Origin: Nitrospirota bacterium | Lineage (GTDB): Bacteria; Nitrospirota; Thermodesulfovibrionia; Thermodesulfovibrionales; SM23-35 | Direction of reading: 5' to 3' | NCBI GenBank assembly: GCA_049323875.1 | Contig: JBMOLW010000041.1 | Location: 74,476 to 138,475 of the forward strand | Length of the DNA stretch: 64,000 nt | Shown: positions 22,971 through 37,672 of the stretch, piece by piece | How the letters are laid out: the number at the start of each line of letters is the position of its first letter | Position numbering within the stretch: position 1 is the stretch's first letter | The notes under the pieces: generated by a model | The model's database searches: none | Told to the model about the DNA's origin: nothing | What the model saw: only the letters and a program-made list of their open reading frames with translations | Made by a program: the position numbers and the translations under genes

Positions 22971-23510
22971 ATGAACAGGAAAACCCTATCCGGCTATTGC
23001 ATCGTTCTCGCACTCTCGTCTCTTCTCCACGCGCTGAGCCCTGCAAAAACATCTATACACCTGATACTCCCCCTTTTTCTGCTCTTCTATCCGACCGTCA
23101 CAGGCTACAGGGTAAAGATCAGTCTTTCCCCGAAGGATATCATGTTCGGGCTTGCGGTATCAGTATTGATCCTTGCACCTTACGGGATTGCGTTCAGGGC
23201 AGAACCGGGCGACCTAACCCCTTATCTCATAGTTTTCCAGTTCCTCGGCGTTGCATTCCCTGAAGAATTTTTCTTCAGGGGATTCCTCCAGGATTCTCTG
23301 GGGAGGAACTACAAAGCAGTCGTGTTCGCAAGCCTCCTTTTTGCGCTCGCCCATCTCCCGCAGGCAATATTCAGCGGCGGATGGATCGCACTCCTCAGCT
23401 TCTTCCCTTCACTGATTATGGGATGGCTTTTCCTGAAAACAAAGAATATACTGCCCGGCGCCATATTTCACTGGGTTGCGAACCTGATACAGCAGTCGAT
23501 ACCCGGCTGA
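22971..23510 (+). CDS. CPBP family (CAAX/Abi) intramembrane glutamic endopeptidase
   Basis: 179 aa, polytopic, with motifs EEFFFRGF (EExxxR), FALAHL (FxxxH) and HWVANL (HxxxN). Its stop lies 2 bp from the convergent S8 protease stop. Confidence 0.85.
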   Translation: MNRKTLSGYCIVLALSSLLHALSPAKTSIHLILPLFLLFYPTVTGYRVKISLSPKDIMFGLAVSVLILAPYGIAFRAEPGDLTPYLIVFQFLGVAFPEEFFFRGFLQDSLGRNYKAVVFASLLFALAHLPQAIFSGGWIALLSFFPSLIMGWLFLKTKNILPGAIFHWVANLIQQSIPG

Positions 23511-23512
23511 TT

Positions 23513-25816
23513 TCACCCTTTCCTTCTCAGGATAAATACGATCACAAGGGGAAGCAGGAGCATAAGGGTATCTGCAACTGCTGTCTGGGGCGAAGCAGTC
23601 CTCCCGATGGCACACCCGCCGCCACCGCCTCCGTCTCCGTTATCAGAGGAAGATTTTTCCGTGGTCGCCTGGGTTTCATTCGAATACGCCGAATAGCCGA
23701 ATGTATTTACTGCACGCACCCGATAGAAATATGTTGTGGCCGGATTTAACCCCGAATCATTGTAGCTCGTGGTATTCGATCCGGTCCCTGCTATTTCAGC
23801 ATACATCCCGGCCTCTCCGGTCTTTCTCTCGATCCTGAAACCGGTTTCATTCGATGAAGTATCTGTCCAGGAAAGATCTATCTGGCTTTTTGAAACCGCC
23901 GTTGCCATGAGGTTCGATGGGGCAGAGGGAATCATAGCGTTCAAGGCTTCAAAGGCATTTACCCTTCCCCCGGTCGCCGTAAACCCGGTGAGGGAACCCT
24001 TCTGATCCACACTGTTCAGGATAATATTCCTCACCTCAGCATAGGACAGGGCAGGATTGGCCGAAAAGACCAGCCCGGCAACACCGCTTACATACGGGGC
24101 AGCAAGCGATGTTCCGCTCCACGGCAGTTCTCCGCGATACATTTCATATGAATAACCCCCTACGCTCAGCGGCTGCCTCTGTACAAGAACATCATCAATG
24201 GATACCCCCTCCTGCTGGAAAAACCCGTCTGATTCGAGGCCAAACCCGATATGGAACCGGTCATAGAGATCGGCTGCTTCCGTAATCAGGTCAGTAAAGA
24301 CCGGGACAAAAGCACCTCCGGTATTCCCGTCCGTCCATGCAACGTTCTGCCATGTATTGCCGTCCGGAGAAGAGTTGAACCAGAAATAATCAAATGAGAG
24401 TTGATCGATATGTCCCTTCCAGACACAGGACAGGATATAGAGGTTGTTCTTGACCGATACCAGCGGGGTCAGATATCCTGCCCAGGAATTGGTATTGGGC
24501 AGATAGGTCGCTCCGGGGCTCTCTTCAAGGCTGTTCGTTCCGTTCACCCCGGTTCCCGGGGTTATCTCCCATGATGCGTTTATTCCACCCTGTGACCATC
24601 CGATCAGGGAAAGCGGGCCCGTTGCACTGTCAAAGTTCTCACTATATACCGTAACCGGTGCGCCCGCTGAAATTACCGGGACAGTGCTGTAGATCTCCAC
24701 TCCCGGAGCAGCAAGATCAACAGATGCTGCTCCATAATTCGAGAAATTCGCAAGGGTATCGCTGCTGTCAGAAGCCGCGACTGACAGGATATTATCCAGG
24801 CTGAAGCCGGCAGGGTAGAAGGGAGCCAAATCAGTGTTCAAACTCTCATTGCCCGCAGCAGCAACAAACAGCACCCCTTTCGACCGGGCATAGTTTATGG
24901 CACTATAGAGAGTATTTGAGTAATCATATCCTCCCCAGCTCGCATTGATAACCCGGGCTCCGTTGTCTGCAGCATAGATGATTGCACCGGCTGCATTCGC
25001 TACATCGCCCGACCCGGTCACTCCCAGAAAACGGATCGCCATGATATTTGACGACCACATGACTCCTGACCCGCCCATACTATTGTTTCCGTCTGATGCG
25101 ATAATCCCTGCGACATGGGTCCCATGGGAGTCCAAATCCTCGGGATAGCCGTCATTATCCACAAAATCCCAGCCATACATATCATCGATATATCCATTGC
25201 CGTCGTCGTCTATGCCATTCGCCGAGATCTCTCTTGTATTCCTCCAGATATTGTCCGCAAGGTCCGGGTGGTTGTATGCGACTCCTGTATCAATTACAGC
25301 GATGATACTGTCCTTCGACCCTGTCGTAAAATCCCATGCTTCCGGAGCATCGATATCCGCATCAGGACTCCCGCTGGTCTGTCCGGTATTTGCAAGCCCC
25401 CACTGATAGATAAAGCCCGGGTCATTCGGGATGACCGCCTTCCTCACAAGATAATTCGGCTCTGCATATTCAACATCAGGATTCGATCGATAGGCGTCGA
25501 GTGTTTTCTGAAGGTCCACGGAACCAGGCAACAGGACCCGTTGTACTCCGATATGCTTCAGCTCGCGGACTTTTCCTGCCCCCATAGCCGCATTGAGCGA
25601 AACTCTTCTCAAGTCCGGGGTACCGGGTTTGAATTTGACGAGAACTTCTCCGGGGAGGTTCCGGGACATCGGCACCTTTAAGCCCTCCGAGCCCTTTCCC
25701 TGAGTCTGCAGGGAAACAGGGTCAGGATTCGTTGTGTTTTGCGTGATCCGGAATTGCTCTTCAGCGCCGCACCCGGCAAAGGCCAGCACAACCATAATAC
25801 AGATGAAATATCTCAC
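23513..25816 (-). CDS. S8 (subtilisin-like) serine protease: lipobox, propeptide, FN3, Cys-containing C-terminal tag
   Basis: GTG start 5 nt after AGGAGG and 10 bp after gspN. Lipobox LAFAGC and propeptide ..VLVKFKPG..VEYAEPNY. Catalytic triad AVIDTGV, HGTHVAG, SGTSLAAP. One FN3 domain. Tail GGGGGGCAIGRTASPQTAVADTLMLLLPLVIVFILRRKG. Confidence 0.93.
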   Translation of the reverse strand: MRYFICIMVVLAFAGCGAEEQFRITQNTTNPDPVSLQTQGKGSEGLKVPMSRNLPGEVLVKFKPGTPDLRRVSLNAAMGAGKVRELKHIGVQRVLLPGSVDLQKTLDAYRSNPDVEYAEPNYLVRKAVIPNDPGFIYQWGLANTGQTSGSPDADIDAPEAWDFTTGSKDSIIAVIDTGVAYNHPDLADNIWRNTREISANGIDDDGNGYIDDMYGWDFVDNDGYPEDLDSHGTHVAGIIASDGNNSMGGSGVMWSSNIMAIRFLGVTGSGDVANAAGAIIYAADNGARVINASWGGYDYSNTLYSAINYARSKGVLFVAAAGNESLNTDLAPFYPAGFSLDNILSVAASDSSDTLANFSNYGAASVDLAAPGVEIYSTVPVISAGAPVTVYSENFDSATGPLSLIGWSQGGINASWEITPGTGVNGTNSLEESPGATYLPNTNSWAGYLTPLVSVKNNLYILSCVWKGHIDQLSFDYFWFNSSPDGNTWQNVAWTDGNTGGAFVPVFTDLITEAADLYDRFHIGFGLESDGFFQQEGVSIDDVLVQRQPLSVGGYSYEMYRGELPWSGTSLAAPYVSGVAGLVFSANPALSYAEVRNIILNSVDQKGSLTGFTATGGRVNAFEALNAMIPSAPSNLMATAVSKSQIDLSWTDTSSNETGFRIERKTGEAGMYAEIAGTGSNTTSYNDSGLNPATTYFYRVRAVNTFGYSAYSNETQATTEKSSSDNGDGGGGGGCAIGRTASPQTAVADTLMLLLPLVIVFILRRKG

Positions 25817-25826
25817 AATAACCTCC

Positions 25827-26606
25827 TCACCGGTAAAGGGTTCCCTTCACCGGTATCACAAAATAACCGGGAGAGACTTTATAGTGCTCAAGCTGCGCGA
25901 GCAGAAACGGGTTTTCGAGAAATGACCTGCCCGGCATGATTTCCATGGCAAGGTCCATCACCGTATTCCGGACTACCCCTTTGAGTCTCGCAAAGACATC
26001 TTCTCCCTCGAGTGAAAGGGATACGATCCGTATCGTGTCACCCTGAATTTCCAGTGCCCCGGTAAGGGTATGGAACAGGTTCAAGGGCACCCGTCTGCCC
26101 GCATAGGTAGCAGGTTCTAAGCGGGCATCCCCTGAAGCGAACTCGGCATGACCGGTTGAATCATTAATCCTCAAGGTGCCGGACAGTCTGCCCCTGCCTG
26201 CGAGACCCATCCTTTTCAGGAATACGATCTCGCTGATGCTGACATCGTTGAGAGAACACGTTATCTGCTGGGTGTCCCTGGTAAATTCCATTCTGCCCGA
26301 AACAGCCCCGCCATATACTTCACCATCGAGCACCCCGCGCAGACTGAAGAAGAAGAGACTGAACGGGTAGACGCGGAGCGAGAGATTGCGGAACGTGACC
26401 AGTTCATGGCTGTCGCGCCTCAGGACTGCTGTGTCAATATCTATAGTATACAACAACCCTTTCTTCAGTCCATGCAGTTCAGCATTGATCCCGTGGGCTG
26501 CGAGGGAATCCTCTATAATGGCCTGGAGTGTGTCCGGGGAGAAAACAACCCATGGACCGCAGAGGATCAGGATCAGGGCGCATGCGAGGATAAGGAAAAG
26601 CTTCAC
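25827..26606 (-). CDS. gspN: Type II secretion system protein N (putative)
   Basis: 259 aa with an N-terminal TM. Positioned after gspM, with a GTGA overlap with it. Confidence 0.6.
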   Translation of the reverse strand: MKLFLILACALILILCGPWVVFSPDTLQAIIEDSLAAHGINAELHGLKKGLLYTIDIDTAVLRRDSHELVTFRNLSLRVYPFSLFFFSLRGVLDGEVYGGAVSGRMEFTRDTQQITCSLNDVSISEIVFLKRMGLAGRGRLSGTLRINDSTGHAEFASGDARLEPATYAGRRVPLNLFHTLTGALEIQGDTIRIVSLSLEGEDVFARLKGVVRNTVMDLAMEIMPGRSFLENPFLLAQLEHYKVSPGYFVIPVKGTLYR

Positions 26607-27106
26607 TTTGTCATCAGGAACGAAAGGGCAAGGGAAATATTCAAGAGCTCAGGATTCTCAAAAGACTTCTTGATAGTCACCTTTTTCATGACAAGCGGCA
26701 TGGGTGCGTTCTCGATCCTGTAAAGGATATTCACCATCTCATTCATGGTAACTTTCTCGAGAGAGAGATCGGCACCCTCTTCAAAACCGCCCCTGATCTC
26801 CTTCTTTCCTGTGGACTTCAGAGTTTTTACTGTATCTTTCAGTCCCATTGAACTGAAGGCTTCATCGACAGCCTGAACAATGCCCTGAGGAGCTGAAAGG
26901 CCCTTCCTGCTTTCTCCTGAATCTATCCTCTGTTTCAAAGAGAGGTATTCCTCCTTCAGCTGAAGCATCTCGTTCTGTTGTTCTTTGAGCATGGCCAGCT
27001 CTGTTCTGGCCGATGAGATCAGGTGCATTCCATAGAAGAGGAGGAGAAGAGCAACGAACAGGCCGCCAAGAAAAATCATCATTGTTTTGTCCTTGAAAAA
27101 TGCCAT
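26603..27106 (-). CDS. gspM: Type II secretion system protein M (putative)
   Basis: 167 aa, bitopic (TM IFLGGLFVALLLLFYGM) followed by a coiled coil. Positioned after gspL. Confidence 0.6.
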   Translation of the reverse strand: MAFFKDKTMMIFLGGLFVALLLLFYGMHLISSARTELAMLKEQQNEMLQLKEEYLSLKQRIDSGESRKGLSAPQGIVQAVDEAFSSMGLKDTVKTLKSTGKKEIRGGFEEGADLSLEKVTMNEMVNILYRIENAPMPLVMKKVTIKKSFENPELLNISLALSFLMTK

Positions 27107-28170
27107 CAGGATTTCCTCTCCCTCGCTGTTATGGTGAACAGCATCCCACTCGCCGCAGACGACTTGGAATCTGACAGGGCAACCCCGTCAAAAACCGGCT
27201 CCAGTCTGTCCTTCATCTTCTGTACCTCGCCCAGGGTCGGGGCTTCTCCTTTCAGAATCAGATTCTCCCTGTCCATGGTCATCTCATGAAAGACCACGTC
27301 TTGCCTGTCGATTTCCGAAATTGCAAGGATTGCGGCCAGAGGACTGATACCGAGAAATATCTCCTCGTCGGTTTTCAGTTCTTTCATATGGGATTTCATC
27401 TGATGGAGTTCATTCACGATATTCTTTTCTCCGGGGAAGACTTCCTGATACTCTTTTCGTATAGCATTTTTTACCGCTGCGATTTCCGAGCGGACAGAGA
27501 AAATATTCAGCAGGATGTCAGCAGCAAAAAACATCACGACAACCATGGCAAGGAGCGCAGTCAATCTCAGCGATCTCCGGGTCTTTTCGGTCTCCCGGGT
27601 GTATGCAAATTCATCCCTGCGGAGGTTGAGGACCGGAGACTTCATCTCTTCAAGAGCAACAGATATCCTTTCCTCTCCGTCCAACTCGCCCGGCCCGAGA
27701 AGTTTTTCCGGTGAAAAATCCCTGATAACTTTCCTGAGATCAAGAGACGTTATGCAGACCGGGTCGGCATTGTATGTCTTCAGTTTTTCCAGAAGGCCTC
27801 TGATAATTTTTTTACTCACATACACTGCGAGCACCTGGCTTGTGTTGCCGGAATCAGTGAGCGGGATGCAATCAAACACCACATTTTCAGATCCTTCGAG
27901 TATGATGTTGTCAAGTTCAAAGGGGAGCACGTCCCTCACCTTTTCCCGTTCTCCAAATGGCAGGTCCATGACCCGGAAATCGAGATTGCTCAGGGGAAGG
28001 CTTACATAGGTATTCTCAACAGCACCCGGAACAGGATCGATCGGAAAATCGTGGCTGCCTGAGCGGGGATAGACCTTGCTCTCCTTAAGAGTATAACCGC
28101 CCCTTCCTGAATCGAAGAGATAGGTTTCGATTTCAGAGTCTCTGATATCAAGAAAGAGCGCCGTTGCCAC
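27106..28170 (-). CDS. gspL: Type II secretion system protein L (putative)
   Basis: 354 aa with a cytoplasmic PilM/actin-like N-domain, one TM (LTALLAMVVVMFFAADILL) and a periplasmic C-domain. GTG start. Confidence 0.65.
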   Translation of the reverse strand: MATALFLDIRDSEIETYLFDSGRGGYTLKESKVYPRSGSHDFPIDPVPGAVENTYVSLPLSNLDFRVMDLPFGEREKVRDVLPFELDNIILEGSENVVFDCIPLTDSGNTSQVLAVYVSKKIIRGLLEKLKTYNADPVCITSLDLRKVIRDFSPEKLLGPGELDGEERISVALEEMKSPVLNLRRDEFAYTRETEKTRRSLRLTALLAMVVVMFFAADILLNIFSVRSEIAAVKNAIRKEYQEVFPGEKNIVNELHQMKSHMKELKTDEEIFLGISPLAAILAISEIDRQDVVFHEMTMDRENLILKGEAPTLGEVQKMKDRLEPVFDGVALSDSKSSAASGMLFTITARERKS

Positions 28171-29057
28171 TAATATTCCTTCCAGTATTCAATGAGATTG
28201 CCGTTGTGATCCCATACCGCTTCAATGATCCGTTTCACTCCTCCTGATGACGCTACCGACTTCACAGAAAATTGGCTGCTTTTCTCCATCAGGGCTATCG
28301 AGGTATCAGGCAATGAACCCGTGAATCTCTGAAAGTCCTCTCCCTTCAGGGGAACCACTTCCCTGTTGCGGACTATCTGCTCCGCTTCCTCTTCCGTAAC
28401 ATCCTCCGCAAGGCATCTCAGCACAGGGGTGCCGGCAGTGTTAATATTTATTTCAAGGTTCAATGCGCTCTTTCCAAAGACAGTAACATATGGCAATAAT
28501 GTATCATACTCTTCTTCCCCGATTCCATGCACCAGGAGAAGTTCGTCGATACTGACGAAATATGCGTTTTCTGCCCCGGTCTCCGAACCCGGCACTCTTG
28601 CCTCGCTGTCCCCGTCTATCCAGTCCGCAATTCTCCCGGCAATACGCTCATCAAGGTTTAAGATGGCCAGCAACCTCACAAATGCATCATAGGTATTCTT
28701 TTGGCCGTTGGGATAGACAAGGGTGTTGATGTTGAATTTGGCGTTTTCGTCCTCGATCCTGACCGTGACCGTCCCCTGGAAATCCTCGAAAGGATTTTCC
28801 ACAGGCATCTCCATAAAATTCTGTGTCGGTATCGCAGTTCCGGAACTCAGCACATTGGCAAGAAACGGCACTGATACGTTGATCCCTGATCTTGCCATGA
28901 GGGAGAGCCGCTGCGCATCCCGCCAGTTATAGAGATTATTCGTTCCCGTATAGACACCATAAGAGAATTCCACGACCATCGCAGTCAGGAGAACAAGGAC
29001 AAGAAGCGTGATAACCAGTGCCATGCCGTGCTGGTTGAAGCACACATTGTGTTTCAT
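28170..29057 (-). CDS. gspK: Type II secretion minor pseudopilin K
   Basis: Prepilin-like MKHNVCFNQHG|MALVITLLVLVLLTAMVVEF with a large GspK-size body. The track ORF extends to 29228, but that extension is a translation of REP copy b. Confidence 0.7.
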   Translation of the reverse strand: MKHNVCFNQHGMALVITLLVLVLLTAMVVEFSYGVYTGTNNLYNWRDAQRLSLMARSGINVSVPFLANVLSSGTAIPTQNFMEMPVENPFEDFQGTVTVRIEDENAKFNINTLVYPNGQKNTYDAFVRLLAILNLDERIAGRIADWIDGDSEARVPGSETGAENAYFVSIDELLLVHGIGEEEYDTLLPYVTVFGKSALNLEININTAGTPVLRCLAEDVTEEEAEQIVRNREVVPLKGEDFQRFTGSLPDTSIALMEKSSQFSVKSVASSGGVKRIIEAVWDHNGNLIEYWKEY

Positions 29058-29107
29058 CGTTTTCCTGGAAATCTCCCTTTCACACTGCATTACTTCTGAA
29101 TAACTGT

Positions 29108-29173
29108 CATTGTCCGGCTTGACCGGACAATCCAGTTTTTTTCTCTGGATTCCCCGATCAAGTCGGGGAATGA
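29108..29173. repeat. Bipartite double-hairpin REP-like element, copy b
   Basis: CATTGTCCGG-CTTGA-CCGGACAATCC, a 17-nt spacer, then GATTCCCCGA-TCAAG-TCGGGGAATGA. Lies between gspJ and gspK. Confidence 0.85.
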
Positions 29174-29224
29174 CTTTATGGACATTTATGCCCAAGTGAA
29201 GAGAGAACAAAGGAATCTTCTCCA

Positions 29225-29875
29225 TCATACCTGATTTCCTATCCTGGGTTTTGCGATATCATTGAGTGTAACCGTATGCCCCTTGATTCTCATGGTCAGG
29301 CCTATCCGTAATTCCCCGGGTTTCGTTTTGTTCACTGCCGCATCCCAGGTCCCCACCCAGGCATCCTGATATTTCGCCTCGATGCTGAACCCTTCAAGAT
29401 CTTCTATGATCTCAACTCCCTCTGTTTCTGCCCTCCCGTATGGTGATTCCATTTTTTTCAGGAGGCTCAGTTTCCCCTCTTTCTCTTCGACATAATACGA
29501 AATCCTTGAAAGCCCGGGGCGCAGAGCGGAGAATGCAGTGAAATCGAGCTGTGTGGTCTGTCTGCCGTAGACATCTCTGTCCTCAATCCGGAATACAGTA
29601 TGGGTTTTCTGTTCGTTCTGATATGCGGCTTCAAGTTCGCATCTAAGGATATCGATAGCTCTCCTTGCCTCCTGAAGTCTGGTCAAAGATTCATCCATTC
29701 CTTCCATTGCCCTGTAGCTCAGGAAAAATGTACTGTAAATCGCAACGAGGATTACGGAGAGGATTGAGACTGCGACAAGCACTTCCAGCAGCGTAAAACC
29801 CATTCGCTGTGACAGGAGAACCCCGGGCCTGTCCTGTCCACCGAAATGGCATAAAGAATCCGTCTTATTGATCAT
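29225..29875 (-). CDS. gspJ: Type II secretion minor pseudopilin J
   Basis: 216 aa with prepilin motif ..QRMG|FTLLEVLVAVSILSV. ATGA overlap with gspI. Confidence 0.7.
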   Translation of the reverse strand: MINKTDSLCHFGGQDRPGVLLSQRMGFTLLEVLVAVSILSVILVAIYSTFFLSYRAMEGMDESLTRLQEARRAIDILRCELEAAYQNEQKTHTVFRIEDRDVYGRQTTQLDFTAFSALRPGLSRISYYVEEKEGKLSLLKKMESPYGRAETEGVEIIEDLEGFSIEAKYQDAWVGTWDAAVNKTKPGELRIGLTMRIKGHTVTLNDIAKPRIGNQV

Positions 29876-30216
29876 TTGACCACAAACTCATTTAACTTCA
29901 CCTCTTCGCCGCCTGCGTTCACCACAACGATAATCTCCGACACCCCGGTATACGGGGAGGCCTTTACAAAAGTCTCATAGGAGTAATGTTCATACGGGGC
30001 ATCGAACTGCGCCTTGCCGGCAACAGGATCCTGTTCGAGATCCGCCATTTTGCTCCTTGCAAGCAGGGTTGCGACCGTTATAGTCTCCTGCCTCTCAATC
30101 AGCCCCAGTTGGTAATTAACGGTATAGATGAGGGTTACAAGCAGGCTGCCGACTATTGCCAGCGCAATCAGCACCTCAAGAAGCGTGAAACCCCTTTTTC
30201 CTCCTTCCTCCTTCAT
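29872..30216 (-). CDS. gspI: Type II secretion minor pseudopilin I
   Basis: 114 aa starting MKEEGGKRG|FTLLEVLIALAIVG. The start codon and SD lie inside the heptamer array. Confidence 0.75.
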   Translation of the reverse strand: MKEEGGKRGFTLLEVLIALAIVGSLLVTLIYTVNYQLGLIERQETITVATLLARSKMADLEQDPVAGKAQFDAPYEHYSYETFVKASPYTGVSEIIVVVNAGGEEVKLNEFVVK

Positions 30217-30272
30217 CCTTCCTCCTTCATCCTTCCTCCTTCATCCTTCATCCCTCATCCTTCATCCCTCGT
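30203..30272. repeat. Heptamer tandem array (CCTTCAT/CCTTCCT)x10 at the gspH-gspI junction
   Basis: Ten contiguous 7-nt units. The coding strand reads ATGAAGG/AGGAAGG. The array contains the gspH TGA stop (30255-30257) and the gspI ATG (30214-30216). Confidence 0.92.
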
Positions 30273-30725
30273 CTCTATCTTCACCCTGCCGCTCAGGTGG
30301 TTCAGCCTGACTGTCATCTGGCTTTCCCCCCTCGTCAGGTAGATAAAGAGGTCCTCCCGGGCGCCGAGAGGCTCAAACAGAAGAGTCAGTTCACCGCTCG
30401 ATACAAGCCCCCTGGATGGTATTTCGACTCCGGTGAGGTCATGAAAAAGCCGGGATTTCTTCCCTGCAGGCTCACTCCATGCCACCAGATTCTTCGTGAG
30501 ATCAAAGGTGAGGGAGAACGTCTCTTTTCTCGACACCGCATTGTCATTTACATATCTCAGGATTGAAGCCATCTCGCGTGCTTCAGCCCTCAGCCTGCTC
30601 TCTCCGAATCCGGTGAATGCAGGTAATATCACTGCCAGGACGACGGACAGGACAAAGAGCACTATGATCAGCTCGATGAGAGAAAAACCGGGGCTATTGC
30701 ATATCCCAGTTCTGGATATCCGCAT
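30255..30725 (-). CDS. gspH: Type II secretion minor pseudopilin H
   Basis: Prepilin motif MRISRTGICNSPG|FSLIELIIVLFVL. The ATG at 30725 has a purine-rich upstream region and is preferred over the track start 30761, which has no SD. Confidence 0.7.
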   Translation of the reverse strand: MRISRTGICNSPGFSLIELIIVLFVLSVVLAVILPAFTGFGESRLRAEAREMASILRYVNDNAVSRKETFSLTFDLTKNLVAWSEPAGKKSRLFHDLTGVEIPSRGLVSSGELTLLFEPLGAREDLFIYLTRGESQMTVRLNHLSGRVKIETRDEG

Positions 30726-31125
30726 CTTTCCCTTCCCCGCCCTCTTTTCCGTCTGCTCCATAGCTCAGGATATCAAAGTCGCCGTAGATACCGGGAGAGA
30801 TGTAGATATAGGGATTATTCCAGGGATCAAGCGGGATTTTTCTCTGTTCGAGATAGCCGCCTTCACGGTATTTCTCAGGTATCTGCCCGACAGCGGGCTT
30901 CTCGATGAGTGATTCAAGTCCCTGTTCAGTGCCCGGGTAAAACCCGTTGTCGAGCTTGAAGAGCTTCAGGGCAGTCTCAAAATTCTTTATCTGTACCTTT
31001 GCCTCTGCAATCCGTGCGTCGTCGGTCCGCCCGATGATCTTCGGCGCAACAATGGCAACGAGGAGACTGAGTATGAAAACCACGACAATAATTTCGAGCA
31101 GGGTAAATCCTTTCTTGTTTTTCAT
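30694..31125 (-). CDS. gspG: Type II secretion major pseudopilin G
   Basis: 143 aa starting MKNKKG|FTLLEIIVVVFILSLL. GspG core ..AKVQIKNFETALKLFKLDNGFYP..DPWNNPY. SD GGAGG. Confidence 0.93.
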   Translation of the reverse strand: MKNKKGFTLLEIIVVVFILSLLVAIVAPKIIGRTDDARIAEAKVQIKNFETALKLFKLDNGFYPGTEQGLESLIEKPAVGQIPEKYREGGYLEQRKIPLDPWNNPYIYISPGIYGDFDILSYGADGKEGGEGKDADIQNWDMQ

Positions 31126-31183
31126 GATTCCTCCGTTCTGGGTTCTCTATTACTAAGACGGCTATAACCAAGGAGACATCTGA

Positions 31184-31249
31184 CATTGCCCGACTTGATC
31201 GGGTAATCCAGAGGAAGGCAAAAGATTCCCCGGTCAAGCCGGAGAATGA
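31184..31249. repeat. Bipartite double-hairpin REP-like element, copy c
   Basis: CATTGCCCGA-CTTGA-TCGGGTAATCC, a 14-nt spacer, then GATTCCCCGG-TCAAG-CCGGAGAATGA. Lies between gspF and gspG. Confidence 0.85.
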
Positions 31250-31274
31250 CGAACAGACAAGCTTCTGTCGCCAT

Positions 31275-31400
31275 ACTAATGACCGCATTAGTAACTGTCC
31301 GGTATAGTCCTTGAGCGGCTTTATCTCCCGAATGCGTTCGGGAGATACCTCGGAGGGCGATAGCCCGAGAATGAGCGAAAGTACTATACCGGACAGTTAT
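31275..31400. other. Highly structured element (three-way-junction-like) between gspF and gspG
   Basis: Perfect 15-bp closing stem ACTGTCCGGTATAGT (31294-31308) / ACTATACCGGACAGT (31383-31397). It encloses hairpins ATCTCCCGAA-TGCG-TTCGGGAGAT and CTC..GGGC-GATA-GCCC-GAG. An adjacent hairpin ACTAATG-ACCG-CATTAGT sits alongside. Confidence 0.45.
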
Positions 31401-31408
31401 TCGTATGC

Positions 31409-32584
31409 TCATTTGATCAACTGGTTCAACTGGAATATCGGAAGCAGGACCGCAAGCACGATGAGTCCAACCAGAAATCCCATGCAGAGAATCATCGCCG
31501 GTTCAAGCAGCGAAAGGGCTTTGTCAACCCTGCGGGAGAACTCCTCCTCGTAAGAATGTGCGGCATTTCTGAGAACCTCTGCCAACTGTCCGCTCCTTTC
31601 TCCGGTTGAAATCAGCTGGAGGAGTACCGGGGGAAAACCATCGAGCGATGCAGAAAGCCGGGCACCCTCTGACACCCGCTTTCCGGCATCCAGAACGTTC
31701 ATCTCAATCACTTTGTTCCCGATCGATCTTGCGGAAAGCTCAAGGGCATTCAGCATGGGAAGCCCCCCCTCAAGAAGGAATGACAAGATCCGGGCGAAAC
31801 GCCCGAAATAGAGGCTCTGGAGAATATTGCCCGGGATACGCAATACCACCCTGTCGACAAAGGCACGTTTCTTCTCCCTGAGGTCCCTGAGGAAATAGAG
31901 ACCACTGAGAAGCAAGCCCATAAGGACCCACCAGGAGCGCTGAAAAACATCACTCACCCAGATGAGTATCACGGTAAGCAAGGGGAGCGCGCTCTGGGTG
32001 TCCTGGTATATTCTGGTGATTTTCGGCATCACAAAGGCGAAGAGAAAAGAAAGCACGATAAAGCTTATGCAGATCATAAAAACAGGGTAGATCATCGATG
32101 TCCTAACTTTGGATTTCAGGCTGTCCTGGGACTCGAGAAAATCGGCGATACGGATGAGGATAGTATCGAGATTTCCGCTCGCCTCACCTGCAGCGATCAT
32201 ATTGATATAGAATTCAGGAAAAATTTTTGGATATTCCTCCAACGCTTTCGAGAAATTTGACCCTGCGGCAATTCGTTCCCGTATGTCCACCAGCATGGTT
32301 TTCCAGAAACCTTTCTGCTCGTCTGAGAGTGACCTGAGCGCTTCAAGGAGGGGTACGCCGGAGGAGAGAAGGGTTGATAATTGCCGCGTTACGGAGGGCA
32401 GAAGGGCTGAGTCGTTTCTGCTGAACAGGGAAAACCGTCTTGTTCCCGAAACCCCTTCCACGTTTCTCGGATAGAGCCCTGACTCTTTGAGCCTGAGCAC
32501 TGCGTCCTTCCTGCTTGCTGCCTCGATCGTTCCCGTTGCCTCGGAACCGTCAGCCCTGTATCCCTTATAGTGAAATATCGGCAT
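31409..32584 (-). CDS. gspF: Type II secretion system inner-membrane platform protein F
   Basis: 391 aa with two GspF/PilC-type repeats and three TM segments. Confidence 0.92.
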   Translation of the reverse strand: MPIFHYKGYRADGSEATGTIEAASRKDAVLRLKESGLYPRNVEGVSGTRRFSLFSRNDSALLPSVTRQLSTLLSSGVPLLEALRSLSDEQKGFWKTMLVDIRERIAAGSNFSKALEEYPKIFPEFYINMIAAGEASGNLDTILIRIADFLESQDSLKSKVRTSMIYPVFMICISFIVLSFLFAFVMPKITRIYQDTQSALPLLTVILIWVSDVFQRSWWVLMGLLLSGLYFLRDLREKKRAFVDRVVLRIPGNILQSLYFGRFARILSFLLEGGLPMLNALELSARSIGNKVIEMNVLDAGKRVSEGARLSASLDGFPPVLLQLISTGERSGQLAEVLRNAAHSYEEEFSRRVDKALSLLEPAMILCMGFLVGLIVLAVLLPIFQLNQLIK

Positions 32585-34085
32585 AATCTTTCTGGGTTAC
32601 CCGCAGGACTTCTTCAAGGGTTGTAATCCCCTGTATCACCTTCTCAAGTCCGTCCTGGCGGAGCGTTTTCATACCCTGCGAAACTGCCTGGCTCTTGATC
32701 CTCTGGGAGTCCATCCGGTCGGTGATCATGGGACGTATCTCGCTGCTGATCTCGAGCAGTTCGAAAATGCCCAGCCTCCCGAGATATCCCTTTCCCTTGC
32801 AGGTATCACATCCCTGCCCCCTGAAAAGAGCCCGGGGAGGTTCCGGGAAATATGAGCGCTCACTCTCCGACGGGGCATAGGCTATCTTGCACCGGGGGCA
32901 GATCGTACGCACCAGCCTCTGCGCAAGCACAAGGGCAAGTGACGAAGCAACGAGGAAGGGCTCGATACCCATGTCTATGAGCCTCACCAGTGCGCTCGGT
33001 GCATCGTTTGTATGAAGGGTGCTGAGAACAAGATGACCGGTAAGCGATGCCTGCATGGCTATTTCAGCCGTTTCGAGGTCTCTTATCTCTCCGACCATGA
33101 TCACGTCAGGGTCCTGCCTCAGAATAGACCTCAGCCCCGAGGCAAAGGTAAGTCTTATTTTAGGGTTCACCTGAACCTGTCCGATGCCTTTCAGCTGATA
33201 TTCGATCGGGTCCTCAACCGTGATAATATTTTTTTCTTCCGTATGAATCCTGTTGAGCGCAGCGTAGAGGGTCGTCGTCTTCCCGCTCCCGGTGGGACCC
33301 GTAACCAGGATGATACCATCCGGCCTTTTCAGATGCTCCTCCATCTTTTTTTCGTCATCCCTGCTGAACCCGACCTCCCAGAGCCCCAGCAGACCCTGTT
33401 TCCTGTCAAGGAGCCTCAGCACTGCCCTCTCGCCATGAGATGCAGGGATGACCGATACCCTGATATCGATATCCCTTCCACCGAGAAGAAGGCGTATCCT
33501 CCCGTCCTGCGGAAGCCTCTTTTCAGCAATGTCGAGGTTCGCCATGATCTTGATCCTGCTGATTAATGCATCCTGGATAATTTTCGGCGGGGTCAGCACC
33601 CTGTGGAGCACCCCGTCTATTCTCAGTCTCACATCGAGCTCTTTCTCATACGGCTCGATGTGGATATCACTTGCACGCTCTTTTACCGCCTGGAGCAGAA
33701 GTGCGTTGAGGAGCCGGATTATGGGGGCCTCTTCGGTCAGTTCGAGCAGGTCTTTCGGTGCTTCGAATTCAGTCGCAACAGAAGAGAGGTCTTCTCCGGC
33801 AATGGTATCCATAACCTCCTCTGCCGAACCCATCTGCCCGTAGAACCTGTTGATCGCATCGAGGATGACCCCTGCACTTGCCCTGACGGGTTTGGGCTTC
33901 AATCCCAGCGTCTTCGCGACTTCAGAAAGCGCAAGCACTCCCCTGTCGTCGGCAACGGCACAGAGGAGATCCGCGTTATCCTGCCTGATAGGGAAGATCT
34001 GGTTGTTCTTTACAAAGGCGAGGGGGATATTCCTGAGAAGAACGGCTTCAACATCCTCATCTCTTATGGCATCAATTTTTTCCAT
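32565..34085 (-). CDS. gspE: Type II secretion system ATPase E
   Basis: 506 aa with Walker A GPTGSGKTT, Asp/His boxes, and the zinc motif CPRC..CDTC. Confidence 0.95.
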   Translation of the reverse strand: MEKIDAIRDEDVEAVLLRNIPLAFVKNNQIFPIRQDNADLLCAVADDRGVLALSEVAKTLGLKPKPVRASAGVILDAINRFYGQMGSAEEVMDTIAGEDLSSVATEFEAPKDLLELTEEAPIIRLLNALLLQAVKERASDIHIEPYEKELDVRLRIDGVLHRVLTPPKIIQDALISRIKIMANLDIAEKRLPQDGRIRLLLGGRDIDIRVSVIPASHGERAVLRLLDRKQGLLGLWEVGFSRDDEKKMEEHLKRPDGIILVTGPTGSGKTTTLYAALNRIHTEEKNIITVEDPIEYQLKGIGQVQVNPKIRLTFASGLRSILRQDPDVIMVGEIRDLETAEIAMQASLTGHLVLSTLHTNDAPSALVRLIDMGIEPFLVASSLALVLAQRLVRTICPRCKIAYAPSESERSYFPEPPRALFRGQGCDTCKGKGYLGRLGIFELLEISSEIRPMITDRMDSQRIKSQAVSQGMKTLRQDGLEKVIQGITTLEEVLRVTQKDYADISL

Positions 34086-34092
34086 CCGATAG

Positions 34093-36369
34093 TCATTGTA
34101 TCTTCATGATATAGTTGGGCTCTGCATATTCCACCTCTTTATAGCTCATAAAAATCCTGACCGCGTCCTTCACATCCCGGCCCTCCTTCACCAGTATCCG
34201 GTAGAGTCCTTTCGGCTTCAAAGGAGACTCGACAGCAGCATCCTCCCGGGAGAGTATCTCAGCGATCCTCTCCTCTGAAGTCCCCTCTCTGAATTTTACG
34301 AGCAACTCGCCCTCTTTATATCTTTCCTCCATCCTTGCAAATTGCAACTGTTTTTCACCGGTCAACTTATCGAGCTGCTCAGGTTCTCTCACAATATGGG
34401 GAGTCAGGAATATGAGCAGGTTAGTCTTCTTTTTCTCCACAGATTTGTTCTTGAACAGCCAGCCCAGCAGGGGGATATCGCCGAGGAGCGGCATCTTGTT
34501 CACAGTCTCTTCCTCCCGCTCTTCCATGAGTCCCCCGATTACCACGGTCTGGTTATCCTTGACAACAACAGAGGTTTTTGTCGAGCGTTTCGTTGTTGTA
34601 GGCCCCACAGTGAGCACCACGGTGGTTGATTCCTGCTTCAGGGCTGATATCTCTTCATAGATGTCGAGTTTCACATGGTTCCCTTCCGTAATCTGCGGGG
34701 TGATTCTCAGCGTAATCCCGACGTCTTTCCTCTCGATCGAGGTGAAGACTGATTGAGGCCGTGCAGGATCGGATTCTTTCTGTGCGATGAACGGCACATT
34801 CTCTCCCACGATGATTTCTGCTTCCTTGTTGTCAGAGGTCAGGATCTGCGGGGTGGAAAGGACGTTCACTGCGTCCTTGAACTCGTTCAGGCTGAAAAGC
34901 GCTGCAAACCCGGGCACAGTCAGAGTTGAAGTCACAGCAGTTCCGTCCGTGCCGATCGTCGTAATCGGGACATCGAGAAAATTCCCCATACCGCCGGCTG
35001 TCATTCCGGTGAGTCCGTAGAGAATTCCCTGCATGGAGGTGGCATCGATCTGACCGAAACCTCCGACCGCAACCGGCTCTCCGTCCTTTTCAGCGATGAT
35101 CCGCCACTTGGAGCCGAGTTCCTGCAACCTGTCTATCGAGGCTTCAACGATCATCGCCTCTACGTATACCTGCCTTCTCTTCCTGTCAAGCTGTTTGATG
35201 ACCTGGACAAGGTTCTGGTAATCTGAAGGAGAGGCTACAATAACAAGAGAATTGGTCGCCTTGTCCGGTGAGATAATAACCCTGCCTCCCGGCTCGAAGG
35301 GGCTCTTCTGTTGCTGGCTCTGCTGACCTGTCTGTCCTGTCCTTGCCTGTGCTGATATCCCCGTTATCATGGAATCAAGCACCTTGGAGAGTTCAGTTGC
35401 GTCCGCATATTCAAGGAAATAGACGTTGATCTTGCTTATTGCATCAGGAAGCGGGATATCGAGGAGAGAAACAATCCGCTTCATGGCCTCTTTTTCCTGC
35501 TTGTCTGCAATCATGATAACGGCATTCAGCCTCGTGTCTGCAAAAACCGTTGATTTGGATTCCTCAACAGACGCCGCCGGCACGGTTTCGCCCGGCCTCA
35601 GCGCCCTCATTGCAGCGGGTTGCCCCTTGCTGCTCAGGACCAGTGTCTCGGTCAGGATCTTCACCACATCTTCCGCATTTGCATATTTCAGGAGAACAAG
35701 CTCAGGCTCCTCTATGCCCGGCTTGTCTATGGTTTCAAGGATCTCGAGCATTCGCTGGACATTCGTTGCAGAGTCGACCACCATGAGCATATTCCCCGGG
35801 CCGAAGGATGAGATATGCCCGTCCCGCGAGACAAGGGGCTGGAGGAAATTCATCGCCTTTGCAGAAGAGATCGCGCTCAGTTGTATCAGTCTTGTGATGT
35901 ACGCATCGCTCACCGGCACACCCTCGTCCGTCTGGAGTTCGGTTCCTGTCTGCCTTGCCTGGGTGGTCGGCACGATCTTATATACTTTTCCGGACGGTAT
36001 AATGGTAAACCCCTTCAGTTCCAGTACTGAAGTGAAAAGGTGGAATGCATCATCCACCGAAAGCCTGGATGGCGCGATGATGGTTATCGTACCCTTCACT
36101 TTCTCATCGAAGACGAAGTTCTTGCCTGTTACTTCGCTGATGAACTTCACCACGACCGGGATATCCACGTCTACAAAGTTGAAGGCTACTTTCTTCTCCT
36201 TACCCTGGCTTTCTTGTTTTTCGGTCGGGGAGGTTTCTCCATACAGGGATGAAATAGGAAGGATGAAGGATGAAATGAGAAACAGGAGAAGGATGAAGGA
36301 TGAAGGATGAAGGATGAAACGTGAACTAACAGAAGAACGAAGGTTGAAGGATGAAAATTTATTCCTCAT
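34093..36369 (-). CDS. gspD: Type II secretion system secretin D with C-terminal S8-propeptide-like domain
   Basis: 758 aa with a repeat-encoded signal peptide, N0-N3 domains and a secretin core (VVIGGLMEE..PLLGDIPLLGWLF). The last 75 aa (YKEGELLVKFREG..VEYAEPNYIMKIQ) resemble the neighbouring protease propeptides. Confidence 0.93.
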   Translation of the reverse strand: MRNKFSSFNLRSSVSSRFILHPSSFILLLFLISSFILPISSLYGETSPTEKQESQGKEKKVAFNFVDVDIPVVVKFISEVTGKNFVFDEKVKGTITIIAPSRLSVDDAFHLFTSVLELKGFTIIPSGKVYKIVPTTQARQTGTELQTDEGVPVSDAYITRLIQLSAISSAKAMNFLQPLVSRDGHISSFGPGNMLMVVDSATNVQRMLEILETIDKPGIEEPELVLLKYANAEDVVKILTETLVLSSKGQPAAMRALRPGETVPAASVEESKSTVFADTRLNAVIMIADKQEKEAMKRIVSLLDIPLPDAISKINVYFLEYADATELSKVLDSMITGISAQARTGQTGQQSQQQKSPFEPGGRVIISPDKATNSLVIVASPSDYQNLVQVIKQLDRKRRQVYVEAMIVEASIDRLQELGSKWRIIAEKDGEPVAVGGFGQIDATSMQGILYGLTGMTAGGMGNFLDVPITTIGTDGTAVTSTLTVPGFAALFSLNEFKDAVNVLSTPQILTSDNKEAEIIVGENVPFIAQKESDPARPQSVFTSIERKDVGITLRITPQITEGNHVKLDIYEEISALKQESTTVVLTVGPTTTKRSTKTSVVVKDNQTVVIGGLMEEREEETVNKMPLLGDIPLLGWLFKNKSVEKKKTNLLIFLTPHIVREPEQLDKLTGEKQLQFARMEERYKEGELLVKFREGTSEERIAEILSREDAAVESPLKPKGLYRILVKEGRDVKDAVRIFMSYKEVEYAEPNYIMKIQ
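36247..36355. repeat. GGATGAA heptamer arrays within the 5' end of gspD
   Basis: GGATGAA units at 36247, 36261, 36268, 36291-36318 (4 perfect) and 36349. The coding strand reads TTCATCC, giving SRFILHPSSFILLLFLISSFILPISS. Confidence 0.9.
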
Positions 36370-36371
36370 CT

Positions 36372-36734
36372 CTATTTCCTCCTAACCTTTTTCACGATGG
36401 ATGTAAAAATTGCTATCAATTCATTGGCCTCTGAGAGTAAGGTTTTCAGTTCTGCACTGCTATTTATTTTAGCATCAAACAATAGTTCAAGCCAGTATAT
36501 CGTTTCATCCAGCTCCTGAACAACGATTCCGATTTTGGAAACAAATTCAGAATCAGAGCGGGCACGACACGCTTCGCGGTAATTCGCACGAGCCGATGTT
36601 CCGGAACGCAATACTTGTTTGCCGATTATTTGAGCTTCATGAGATTTGGAAGGAAGTAAAGAATAGAAATGGACTATCTTTATCGCGTATTTTTTTGTCC
36701 TGTCCCTCAAATTCTCTGTGATTCTATTTTCCAT
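36372..36734 (-). CDS. Four-helix-bundle protein (23S rRNA intervening-sequence protein family)
   Basis: 120 aa with family pattern ..QVLRSGTSARANYREACRARSDSEFVSKIGIVVQELDETIYWLELL. Lower GC than its neighbours. Alternative start at 36773 inside the heptamer array. The stop lies 2 nt before the gspD ATG. Confidence 0.8.
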   Translation of the reverse strand: MENRITENLRDRTKKYAIKIVHFYSLLPSKSHEAQIIGKQVLRSGTSARANYREACRARSDSEFVSKIGIVVQELDETIYWLELLFDAKINSSAELKTLLSEANELIAIFTSIVKKVRRK

Positions 36735-36761
36735 TTTCCTCCCTGTTTTTTCTGTCTTTAC

Positions 36762-36792
36762 TTCCTCCTTCATCCCTCACCATTCATCCTTA
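36762..36792. repeat. Short heptamer array (TTCCTCC/TTCATCC) between gspC and the four-helix-bundle gene
   Basis: TTCCTCC TTCATCC CTCACCA TTCATCC, in inverted orientation relative to the 36247-36355 arrays. Confidence 0.8.
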
Positions 36793-36796
36793 TCTT

Positions 36797-37672
36797 TTAT
36801 CGTATCTGATACGTCATGGTCATCCGTGCGCCTGACCGGATCATGTCAATCTGCACCCTGTCAAGACCTTTCAGCGCATTGAATGCCTGCAGCGCCCTGT
36901 CAGGATTCGAAATATCGTATTCGTTGATCCGAAGCAGCACATCACCGTCCTGGAGACCCAGACTGTGGTAGATCCCCCCGGGTTTCACTTCACTCAGGAC
37001 GAACCCCTCCTCCCTGCCGTTCACCACGTTCGGCCTGAGCCGTGCATCGGTCATCATCTGGGCCGGATTCGCAATTGCATGCTGGAGTCTGTTCTGATCA
37101 ACGACATATAACCCCCTCCCTACTCTCTGGGCAAATGCAGAAAGCTGAGGACTGCCTGCAGCGACCGGGCTGCTGATCTCTTTTATGGTAACGTCATCGA
37201 GGGGGATTTCGATCTCCCTGCCCCCCTGTATAAGCAAGACCTTTTCTTTTTCGACACGGGAGAGTTTCCCGGCTCCAAAGACTGATTCGCCGAGCTTGAA
37301 TACATCCTGCAGCCCTGTCCTGTCCCTGAATATTCCGAAGGTCATCTCCTTCGGGCCAACTACTGTGCCGACCAGTGCGATATCCGCCGGACCTGCCTGA
37401 CTTCCGGAAGAAGCGGCCAGGAGCTTCAGTTCCCCGCCAGGGAAACCGAAAGGATTGTTCGCAAGGATACGGGCATACTCTGTGAATTGGGTCTTGTGCA
37501 TTTCCGGCTGTTTACCGGCAGTCGAAAGGGATTCTGTCCTTGAGGCCTTTCCCTGTGCGAAATACAGCGTCAGGGCATCCCTGACCAGAAAAAGAGTCGC
37601 TAACACAAGGAGGATGCCGAGACAGACATTCAGAAAGAAAATAGTTCTCTTTGTCAGAAGTCCTGAGTTCAA
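36797..37672 (-). CDS. gspC: Type II secretion system protein C (PDZ domain)
   Basis: 291 aa with an N-terminal TM, an HR-like region and a C-terminal PDZ (GFVLSEVKPGGIYHSLGLQDGDVLLRIN). TTG start, and the only start available. Confidence 0.8.
   Translation of the reverse strand: MNSGLLTKRTIFFLNVCLGILLVLATLFLVRDALTLYFAQGKASRTESLSTAGKQPEMHKTQFTEYARILANNPFGFPGGELKLLAASSGSQAGPADIALVGTVVGPKEMTFGIFRDRTGLQDVFKLGESVFGAGKLSRVEKEKVLLIQGGREIEIPLDDVTIKEISSPVAAGSPQLSAFAQRVGRGLYVVDQNRLQHAIANPAQMMTDARLRPNVVNGREEGFVLSEVKPGGIYHSLGLQDGDVLLRINEYDISNPDRALQAFNALKGLDRVQIDMIRSGARMTMTYQIR

Follow-up and report, generated by a model that had tools for sequence, protein, structure and literature searches.

We analysed a 64,000-nucleotide stretch of the genome of a Nitrospirota bacterium (order Thermodesulfovibrionales; contig C41:74476-138475, GenBank JBMOLW010000041.1), referred to here as the window. 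The source genome is 2.79 Mb long and 99.6% complete. Two subtilases encoded in the window, S8-1 and S8-2, end in the same short tail. Next to S8-1 lies a gene for a predicted intramembrane protease of the CPBP family. Our principal conclusion is that the tail is probably a sorting signal, processed by this adjacent Rce1-like, myxosortase-type glutamic protease. The observations behind it are the tail module, its conservation, its portability, its linkage to and co-occurrence with the CPBP gene, the intact motifs of the proteins and the nearby operon for a type II secretion system (T2SS). Features of the locus are collected in Table 1.

A C-terminal tail shared by two subtilases

The tail has the same order in both proteases. 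A Gly run leads into the motif GGC[AS][IV]G. This is followed by a polar spacer of 9-10 residues, T-A-x-A-D, a hydrophobic stretch and RR[KR]. The hydrophobic stretch comprises 19 residues with an internal Pro and has a Kyte-Doolittle mean of 2.2-2.4. Within this helix, both tails contain LMLLxP. The original prediction, made from the sequence of the window, had placed such a pattern at 23513-23632 and 37913-38032. We found the pattern as described at both open reading frame (ORF) ends, and the positions are exact. Each range holds 39 codons and a stop codon on the minus strand. Translation of either range on the plus strand is meaningless, and the coding strand is the minus strand.

Table 1. 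Positions of the main features of the locus within the window.
Feature	Position	Strand	Description
CPBP/Rce1-like glutamic-type intramembrane protease, candidate sorting enzyme	22971..23510	+	179 aa; Pfam PF02517 and catalytic motifs
Subtilase S8-1	23513..25816	-	767-aa predicted lipoprotein; prodomain, S8, fn3, tail; last gene of the T2SS operon
C-terminal tail of S8-1 (putative sorting signal)	23516..23632	-	Residues 729-767; Gly run, Cys735 (23612-23614), spacer, TAVAD, LMLLLP helix, RRKG; stop codon 23513-23515
T2SS operon	25827..37672	-	gspC, four-helix-bundle gene, gspD-E-F-G-H-I-J-K-L-M-N; flanked by both tagged proteases
Subtilase prodomain copy in the GspD secretin	34099..34344	-	C-terminal domain, aa ~676-757; gspD = 34093-36369
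Subtilase S8-2	37913..40015	-	700-aa predicted lipoprotein; prodomain, S8, two fn3 domains, tail; immediately upstream of gspC
C-terminal tail of S8-2 (putative sorting signal)	37916..38032	-	Residues 662-700; GGSGGC with Cys667 (38015-38017), spacer, TACAD, LMLLMP helix, RRRRS; stop codon 37913-37915

A profile was made from 17 tails (alignment A1, 42-residue slices). Across the 2.79-Mb genome, this profile matched only the ORF ends of S8-1 and S8-2, with E-values of 1.7e-20 and 1.3e-19 per genome. Judged by sequence, the likeness of the two tails is far beyond chance. Strict and relaxed pattern scans in all six frames of the genome identified no third carrier. A HAF-like repeat protein (18582-19967) was considered as a carrier and rejected; it has neither the helix nor the basic tail. 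A search of a 5.8-billion-protein collection with the tail alone returned only the self match, the tail being too short for a database of that size.

In related genomes, the ORF adjoining the CPBP gene ends in the same tail. The consensus of alignment A1 reads: Gly run, C-S-I-G, three variable residues, N, x, Q-T-A-x-A-D, two variable residues, V-L-L-x-P-L, the remainder of the helix and R-R. The Pro never varies, and the Cys is found in all tails whose 42-residue slice extends to it; a single apparent exception is a slicing artefact. One tail stops after the Pro, with no remaining helix or basic cluster, and may result from a frameshift or sequencing error (L004 10992-13310, minus strand / L066). 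Compared pairwise among 18 carriers, tails are on average 51% identical, S8 cores 56%, signal peptides 37%, and the linkers and insert 24-27%. Consistent with the proposal of a conserved module, the tail is kept about as well as the catalytic core.

The likeness of the two tails could be mere shared ancestry, due to recent duplication of one protease gene, with no separate function for the tail. It is true that, in the window genome, only two paralogous proteases carry it. However, the overall identity of S8-1 and S8-2 is only 44%. A maximum-likelihood tree places them in separate groups, each with orthologues from several genera. Identity between the two proteins is 14% in the N-terminal linker, 27% in the pre-tail linker, 51% in the S8 core and 44% in the tail. 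Hence, linkers have diverged to 14-27% identity while the tail retains 44-51%. Carriers that are not homologous to the subtilases also exist. One (in genome G037) is a complete 435-aa non-S8 protein with a tail scoring 58.6 bits. Another (in G033) is a protein of immunoglobulin-like (Ig) repeats (ASH/VesB-like Ig, He_PIG), encoded just upstream of the CPBP gene; the contig end truncates it at the N-terminus, and an upstream S8 domain is possible. The tree, the identities by region and the non-homologous carriers rule out recent duplication, to which we attach next to no probability. The original prediction had named two findings that would count against a separate module: duplication of the whole protease in recent times, and restriction of the tail to these two paralogues. 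Neither was made. Carriers, non-subtilases included, occur in at least 19 related genomes. Relatives have 1-3 carriers per genome, mostly subtilases; the window genome has two.

The subtilases themselves share a domain layout. According to Pfam, each consists of a Fervidolysin-type prodomain, a Peptidase_S8 domain, one or more fn3 domains and the tail. The catalytic D/H/S motifs are intact in S8-1 (aa 176/231/569) and in S8-2. An insert of ~170 residues (aa ~387-560; 24119-24676, minus strand) separates the His and Ser catalytic motifs of S8-1 and is absent from S8-2. Among orthologues, this insert is the least conserved region, with 27% mean identity.

Both proteases also begin with a lipobox, as originally claimed. 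The motif is FAGC in S8-1 (residues 13-16; 25769-25780) and LAAC in S8-2 (residues 13-16; 39968-39979). Of 18 full-length carriers from relatives, which represent both paralogue lineages, 17 retain an equivalent lipobox with G or S after it. The genome encodes Lgt and LspA on contig C42. Hence, S8-1 and S8-2 show the features of lipoproteins (a signal peptide that closes with a lipobox of the form [LVIF]-x-[GAS]-C, with Lgt and LspA available), although acylation is a prediction. The S8-1 prodomain spans aa 55 to about 121-122 and ends VEYAEPNYL; that of S8-2 ends VEYAEPNYI. In both subtilases the prodomain sits between the predicted lipidated Cys16 and the mature enzyme. This arrangement of lipobox and prodomain, also part of the original prediction, is conserved among the carriers. 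Subtilase autoprocessing at the end of the prodomain would free the mature enzyme from the N-terminal lipid.

The neighbouring CPBP protease and the type II secretion operon

From the conservation of the tail, the original prediction had argued for recognition by a processing enzyme. The conservation of the whole module and a candidate enzyme encoded next door support this idea. The CPBP gene, which the prediction did not mention, is convergent with S8-1; the two stop codons are 2 nt apart. Its product matches the Pfam Rce1-like family (PF02517) with 74.5 bits, against a cutoff of 22.4, and so belongs to the family. No other PF02517 gene is present in the genome. The protein contains the motifs EEFFFR (23262-23279), FALAH (23340-23354) and HWVAN (23469-23483). 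The corresponding patterns EExxxR, FxxxH and HxxxN are invariant across 12 CPBP orthologues. An AlphaFold2 model (predicted local distance difference test score 91.8) is all-helical, with eight helices.

Four Cys-containing tripartite signals, MYXO-, JDVT-, Synerg- and CGP-CTERM, have each been assigned a CPBP subfamily (Haft 2023, 10.1101/2023.06.07.544157). The top NCBIfam matches of the window enzyme are all of this myxosortase type, and all score under their cutoffs. The best is MrtS (73.6 bits, cutoff 130), followed by MrtP (60.8, cutoff 250), Mrt_core (59.1, cutoff 100), MrtC (47.0, cutoff 195), MrtX (41.8, cutoff 180), MrtJ (NF033192; 40.2, cutoff 75) and MrtZ (32.0, also below cutoff). 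Relatives of the enzyme form at least 211 clusters at E<=1e-10. Their public names are 'membrane protease YdiL (CAAX protease family)' or 'uncharacterized'. Relatives that are 77-79% identical occur in metagenome-assembled genomes (MAGs) titled Thermodesulfovibrionales (Nitrospirota).

The tail and the CPBP gene occur together. Among 41 related genomes, a CPBP orthologue is present in 20 and the tail in 20. Both are found in 19 and neither in 19, leaving two discordant genomes. Where both are present, the tail lies no more than about 500 nt from the CPBP gene in 18 of 19 genomes. One discordant genome, G014, has the CPBP gene and the T2SS, and the contig ends inside gspC. Hence, S8-2 is missing because it was not assembled. 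The same locus (L120, G014:C156) has no S8-1, and the CPBP gene abuts gspN; like that of G005 (see below), it is a natural variant of the cassette.

The phylum was surveyed with an even sample of 301 genomes. Tail and CPBP gene were found together in 17 genomes and were both absent from 274. The CPBP gene alone was found in 4. Six genomes had the tail only; these matches are all weak (21-33 bits) and lie in other families. All 10 genomes with tails of at least 40 bits also have the CPBP gene. In five genomes, the tail and the CPBP gene are on different contigs. Hence, the association is not just physical hitch-hiking.

Within the family, the gene order aroC / CPBP / S8-1 / gspN to gspC / S8-2 / Big/PKD protein / orf212 / pilQ holds across genera. 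In families of the order that are less closely related, only a minimal unit of aroC, CPBP and tagged S8 is retained, with CPBP immediately downstream and oriented the same way. S8-1 is turned round in G024. These changes of order and orientation indicate that adjacency survives rearrangement. A genome of the same genus as the window, G003, has two copies of the stretch from pilQ through S8-2 to gspC-D-E, on different contigs (L122, G003:C2; L123, G003:C5). The C2 copy has split gspC, gspF and gspH genes, and its S8-2 tail falls in a 68-aa open frame. Mixed strains in the MAG or decay of a duplicate might explain the double copy.

A complete type II secretion operon, encoded on the strand of the proteases, occupies the 12 kb between S8-1 and S8-2. 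The original prediction missed any role for this system between the two proteases; T2SS transport is central in published work on related tags. The operon has a link to the subtilases. Its secretin, GspD, ends in a copy of the subtilase prodomain of ~75 residues. Identity is 43% with the prodomain of S8-2 (E 2e-17) and 35% with that of S8-1. The match extends to the final residues, taking in the VEYAEPNYI segment. The same prodomain-tailed architecture is seen in about 40 GspD clusters; those named by organism are from Thermodesulfovibrionales or Nitrospirota. The prodomain copy suggests that the T2SS is tied to its protease cargo, which might dock at the secretin or be chaperoned or inhibited there. 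Between gspC and gspD lies a four-helix-bundle gene (23S rRNA intervening-sequence protein family, TIGR02436; 36372-36773, minus strand). It has the same place in G011 and was not detected in G012 or G024.

A candidate sorting route and its alternatives

MrtX cuts MYXO-CTERM in a Cys-dependent manner, in E. coli included (Guo, Haft and Wall 2025, PMC11980579). The same authors propose that the Cys of MYXO-CTERM is lipidated, that the cut is distal to the Cys and that the T2SS carries the product to the surface; Lgt is the candidate transferase (PMC11980579). From the precedent of MrtX and MYXO-CTERM, we infer cleavage, Cys modification, T2SS dependence, surface anchoring and an anchor swap for the tagged subtilases.

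Briefly, the subtilase zymogen would be exported by Sec. Its C-terminal helix would keep it at the inner membrane, leaving the basic cluster on the cytoplasmic side; an N-terminal lipoprotein anchor would probably help to hold it there. The invariant Cys would be modified, probably by lipidation. The CPBP enzyme would recognise the spacer and helix (T-A-x-A-D ... P), cut distal to the Cys and so remove the helix. The folded protease could then cross the outer membrane via the operon's own T2SS, with its prodomain-bearing secretin. Prodomain autocleavage would part the mature enzyme from the N-terminal lipid and make the modified C-terminal Cys the sole tether. On the architecture of the proteins, such a swap from an N-terminal to a C-terminal anchor is coherent and plausible.

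The locus may amount to more, namely a self-contained 'protease display cassette' with anchor hand-over. Here, a dedicated CPBP sortase would replace the C-terminal helix by a lipid-Cys anchor. Export would be through a cargo-specialised T2SS, with the prodomain copy in its secretin serving to dock, chaperone or silence the cargo. Autocleavage would discard the N-terminal anchor, with the enzyme surface-tethered by its C-terminus only. We advance this fuller scheme tentatively, as a possibility with the balance against it. If true, it would unite lipoprotein and sortase-like logic with cargo recognition at the secretin, a combination not described before.

Other roles for the tail have to be weighed against that of a processed sorting signal. 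The tail might do no more than retain the zymogen at the inner membrane up to cleavage by the CPBP protease, after which the enzyme would be secreted by the T2SS in soluble form. The Cys would then be non-lipidated and serve, for instance, in recognition or in a transient disulfide. Linkage and co-occurrence fit this explanation equally well. Part of the MYXO-CTERM clients is reported to be released outside the cell, and lipidation is hypothetical even for MrtX (PMC11980579). A Cys placed ~10 residues outside the helix also agrees with such a role. However, a Gly run with an invariant Cys is the hallmark of all four published signals, for which the Rce1 analogy favours lipidation before cleavage. 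Moreover, a membrane tether is normally dispensable for soluble T2SS cargo. We consider release of this kind unlikely.

Alternatively, the tail might be a plain, permanent membrane anchor, as in mycosin-type subtilases. In that case there would be no processing and the CPBP gene would be unrelated. The top NCBIfam match of both proteases is indeed mycosin, a class with a C-terminal transmembrane anchor, albeit below cutoff. Genome G005, described below, keeps a tagged protease without an orthologous CPBP gene. Yet a generic anchor requires neither a conserved polar spacer nor invariance of the Cys and the intramembrane Pro, and it would not match the catalytic core in conservation. The co-occurrence of tail and CPBP gene, and their adjacency in 18 of 19 genomes even across rearrangements, also argue against an unrelated neighbour. 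Finally, anchoring at the inner membrane fits poorly with a T2SS operon whose secretin has the protease prodomain. A permanent anchor is thus very improbable in our view.

Several observations weigh against processing of a sorting signal by the CPBP enzyme. G005 (96% complete, 4 contigs) is a genuine exception to the co-occurrence. This genome keeps the tagged protease and the T2SS, and the orthologous CPBP gene has been lost from its slot. Only 76 nt separate the protease from aroC (L116, G005:C2:371000-390999), and the lone CPBP gene elsewhere in the genome is non-orthologous. The surveyed genomes are kin, and the co-occurrence counts overstate independence. Most carriers of the order are subtilases, and portability of the tail is seen in few cases. 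For no member does a curated NCBIfam model of a sorting signal or Mrt enzyme reach its cutoff (best tail 21 against 27 bits; best enzyme 73.6 against 130). The Cys, ~10 residues outside the predicted helix, is further away than in MYXO-, JDVT- or Synerg-CTERM. A Foldseek search of the PDB with the AlphaFold2 model of the CPBP protein gave no match below E 0.69, Rce1 included, and phmmer found no match among PDB sequences. Hence, a fold-level link to solved structures failed, and the CPBP assignment rests on the Pfam match and the catalytic motifs.

Related tails and published sorting systems

In the sense of Haft (2023), the tail and its candidate enzyme have the sequence and gene-context properties of the wider superfamily of such systems. 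The signature is at the extreme C-terminus and combines an invariant Cys, a transmembrane helix and a basic cluster. A putative cognate PF02517 protease co-occurs with it across genomes and is encoded next to a client. The tail is also shared by otherwise non-homologous proteins, in a few cases. The literature searched held no account of a system of this kind from Nitrospirota or Thermodesulfovibrio, and the Haft preprint makes no mention of these taxa.

Similar systems may exist elsewhere. CPBP proteins ~40% identical in the core are encoded in MAGs of Dadabacteria/Thermodesulfobacteriota (L014, L026, L032, L034; G321-G325). These proteins score below all Mrt cutoffs. Near some of the genes are those for leucine-rich repeat (LRR), Cache, beta-helix and S8/P-domain proteins. 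Most such neighbours, the LRR and Cache carriers, end in a clearly related variant tail, G-G-C-[AT]-I...N-[AT]-[ST]-[QE]...F-N-L-x-L...S, which no curated model matches. A profile of four variant tails gave 8-29 matches per 1.6-2.0-Mb genome; since the profile is small, some weak matches are possibly false. Going by these tails, the CPBP clade seems to serve both a many-client form, in Dadabacteria, and a dedicated form. This mirrors the contrast between MYXO- and JDVT-CTERM. A third flavour of tail, with a Gly run and C-G-V-I-D-S-N-K-N...L-L-L-P, gives weak matches of 27-33 bits in another Nitrospirota family (L127, L129, L132; G041, G082, G067). None of these three genomes has an orthologue of the window CPBP gene. 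The third flavour is possibly a further sub-type with its own enzyme.

The definition of Cys-containing signals cut by CPBP proteases is recent, and MrtX is the only enzyme to have been put to an experimental test. The locus extends this class to Nitrospirota (Thermodesulfovibrionales), with a distinct signature outside all curated models. This extension is natural but useful, and the compact cassette and the fusion of secretin and prodomain add to its appeal. With one enzyme, one to three clients and a T2SS in one cassette, the system is well suited to reconstitution, which could also address how the Cys is modified and by which agent. Annotators have reason not to label such tails as plain membrane anchors. 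The many-client variant tail of Dadabacteria suggests that there are more unrecognised sorting systems of the same type.

Among the published systems, JDVT-CTERM/MrtJ (NF033191 / NF033192) shares much with the window locus. Both have a tripartite tail with a single invariant Cys and conserved residues in the helix. JDVT-CTERM genomes have ~1 client, adjoining MrtJ (10.1101/2023.06.07.544157); in both systems there are one to few clients per genome and the client usually adjoins a small CPBP-family protease gene. JDVT-CTERM is also the best-scoring curated tail model, with 21 bits for S8-2 and 8 bits for S8-1, under its cutoff of 27. It matches 8 of the 17 tails (E<=10), all below 27 bits. The differences are in the detail. 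JDVT-CTERM has a near-invariant D-P nine residues after the Cys, whereas the Asp and Pro of S8-1 are 14 and 21 residues after the Cys, are not adjacent and follow a polar spacer. At 40.2 bits, the window enzyme scores under the 75 bits that define MrtJ. Furthermore, JDVT-CTERM is found in Pseudomonadota, and no embedding in a T2SS operon has been described for it.

Synerg-CTERM/MrtS (TIGR04564, NF040589, NF041616-9) provides the best enzyme model, MrtS, a protein of much the same length (~170 aa). The genomic distribution of Synerg-CTERM follows that of a divergent T2SS (10.1101/2023.06.07.544157). The window GspM weakly matches the Synerg-type GspM model from this cassette. In contrast, the Cys of Synerg-CTERM abuts the helix, with no equivalent of the 9-10-residue polar spacer. 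TIGR04564 gave no match to the tails at E<=10, the window enzyme does not reach the 130 bits of MrtS, and Synerg-CTERM is restricted to Synergistales.

MYXO-CTERM (TIGR03901) also combines a Gly-rich motif and invariant Cys with a helix, an Arg cluster and a CPBP-family protease. For MYXO-CTERM, surface delivery by the T2SS has been shown experimentally; for the window proteases, the gene context is a T2SS operon. There are dozens of MYXO-CTERM clients per genome and a housekeeping enzyme unlinked to them, compared with two clients here and 1-3 in relatives. The Cys is close to the helix in MYXO-CTERM, often with a second Cys, and the phylum is different. The model scores 15.1 bits with the tails described here, under its cutoff of 20.

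Two other systems resemble parts of the proposed route. VesB of Vibrio cholerae, a GlyGly-CTERM/rhombosortase client, is likewise a secreted serine protease with a C-terminal tripartite tag. Its tag is cut by an intramembrane protease, export is by the T2SS and a new C-terminal lipid-type moiety retains the protein at the surface, as we propose for S8-1 and S8-2. However, the processing enzyme is a rhomboid serine protease rather than a CPBP glutamic protease, the tag has GG without Cys, and the client is trypsin-like and has no N-terminal lipobox. Pullulanase (PulA) of Klebsiella is a T2SS substrate with an N-terminal lipobox, kept at the cell surface as the tagged subtilases are proposed to be. 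Unlike them, PulA has the N-terminal lipid as its only anchor, no removable prodomain between lipid and enzyme, and no C-terminal tag. The system of tail and CPBP protease thus resembles the published systems and fits the curated definition of none. Most likely, it is an undescribed relative of the myxosortase surface-sorting systems.

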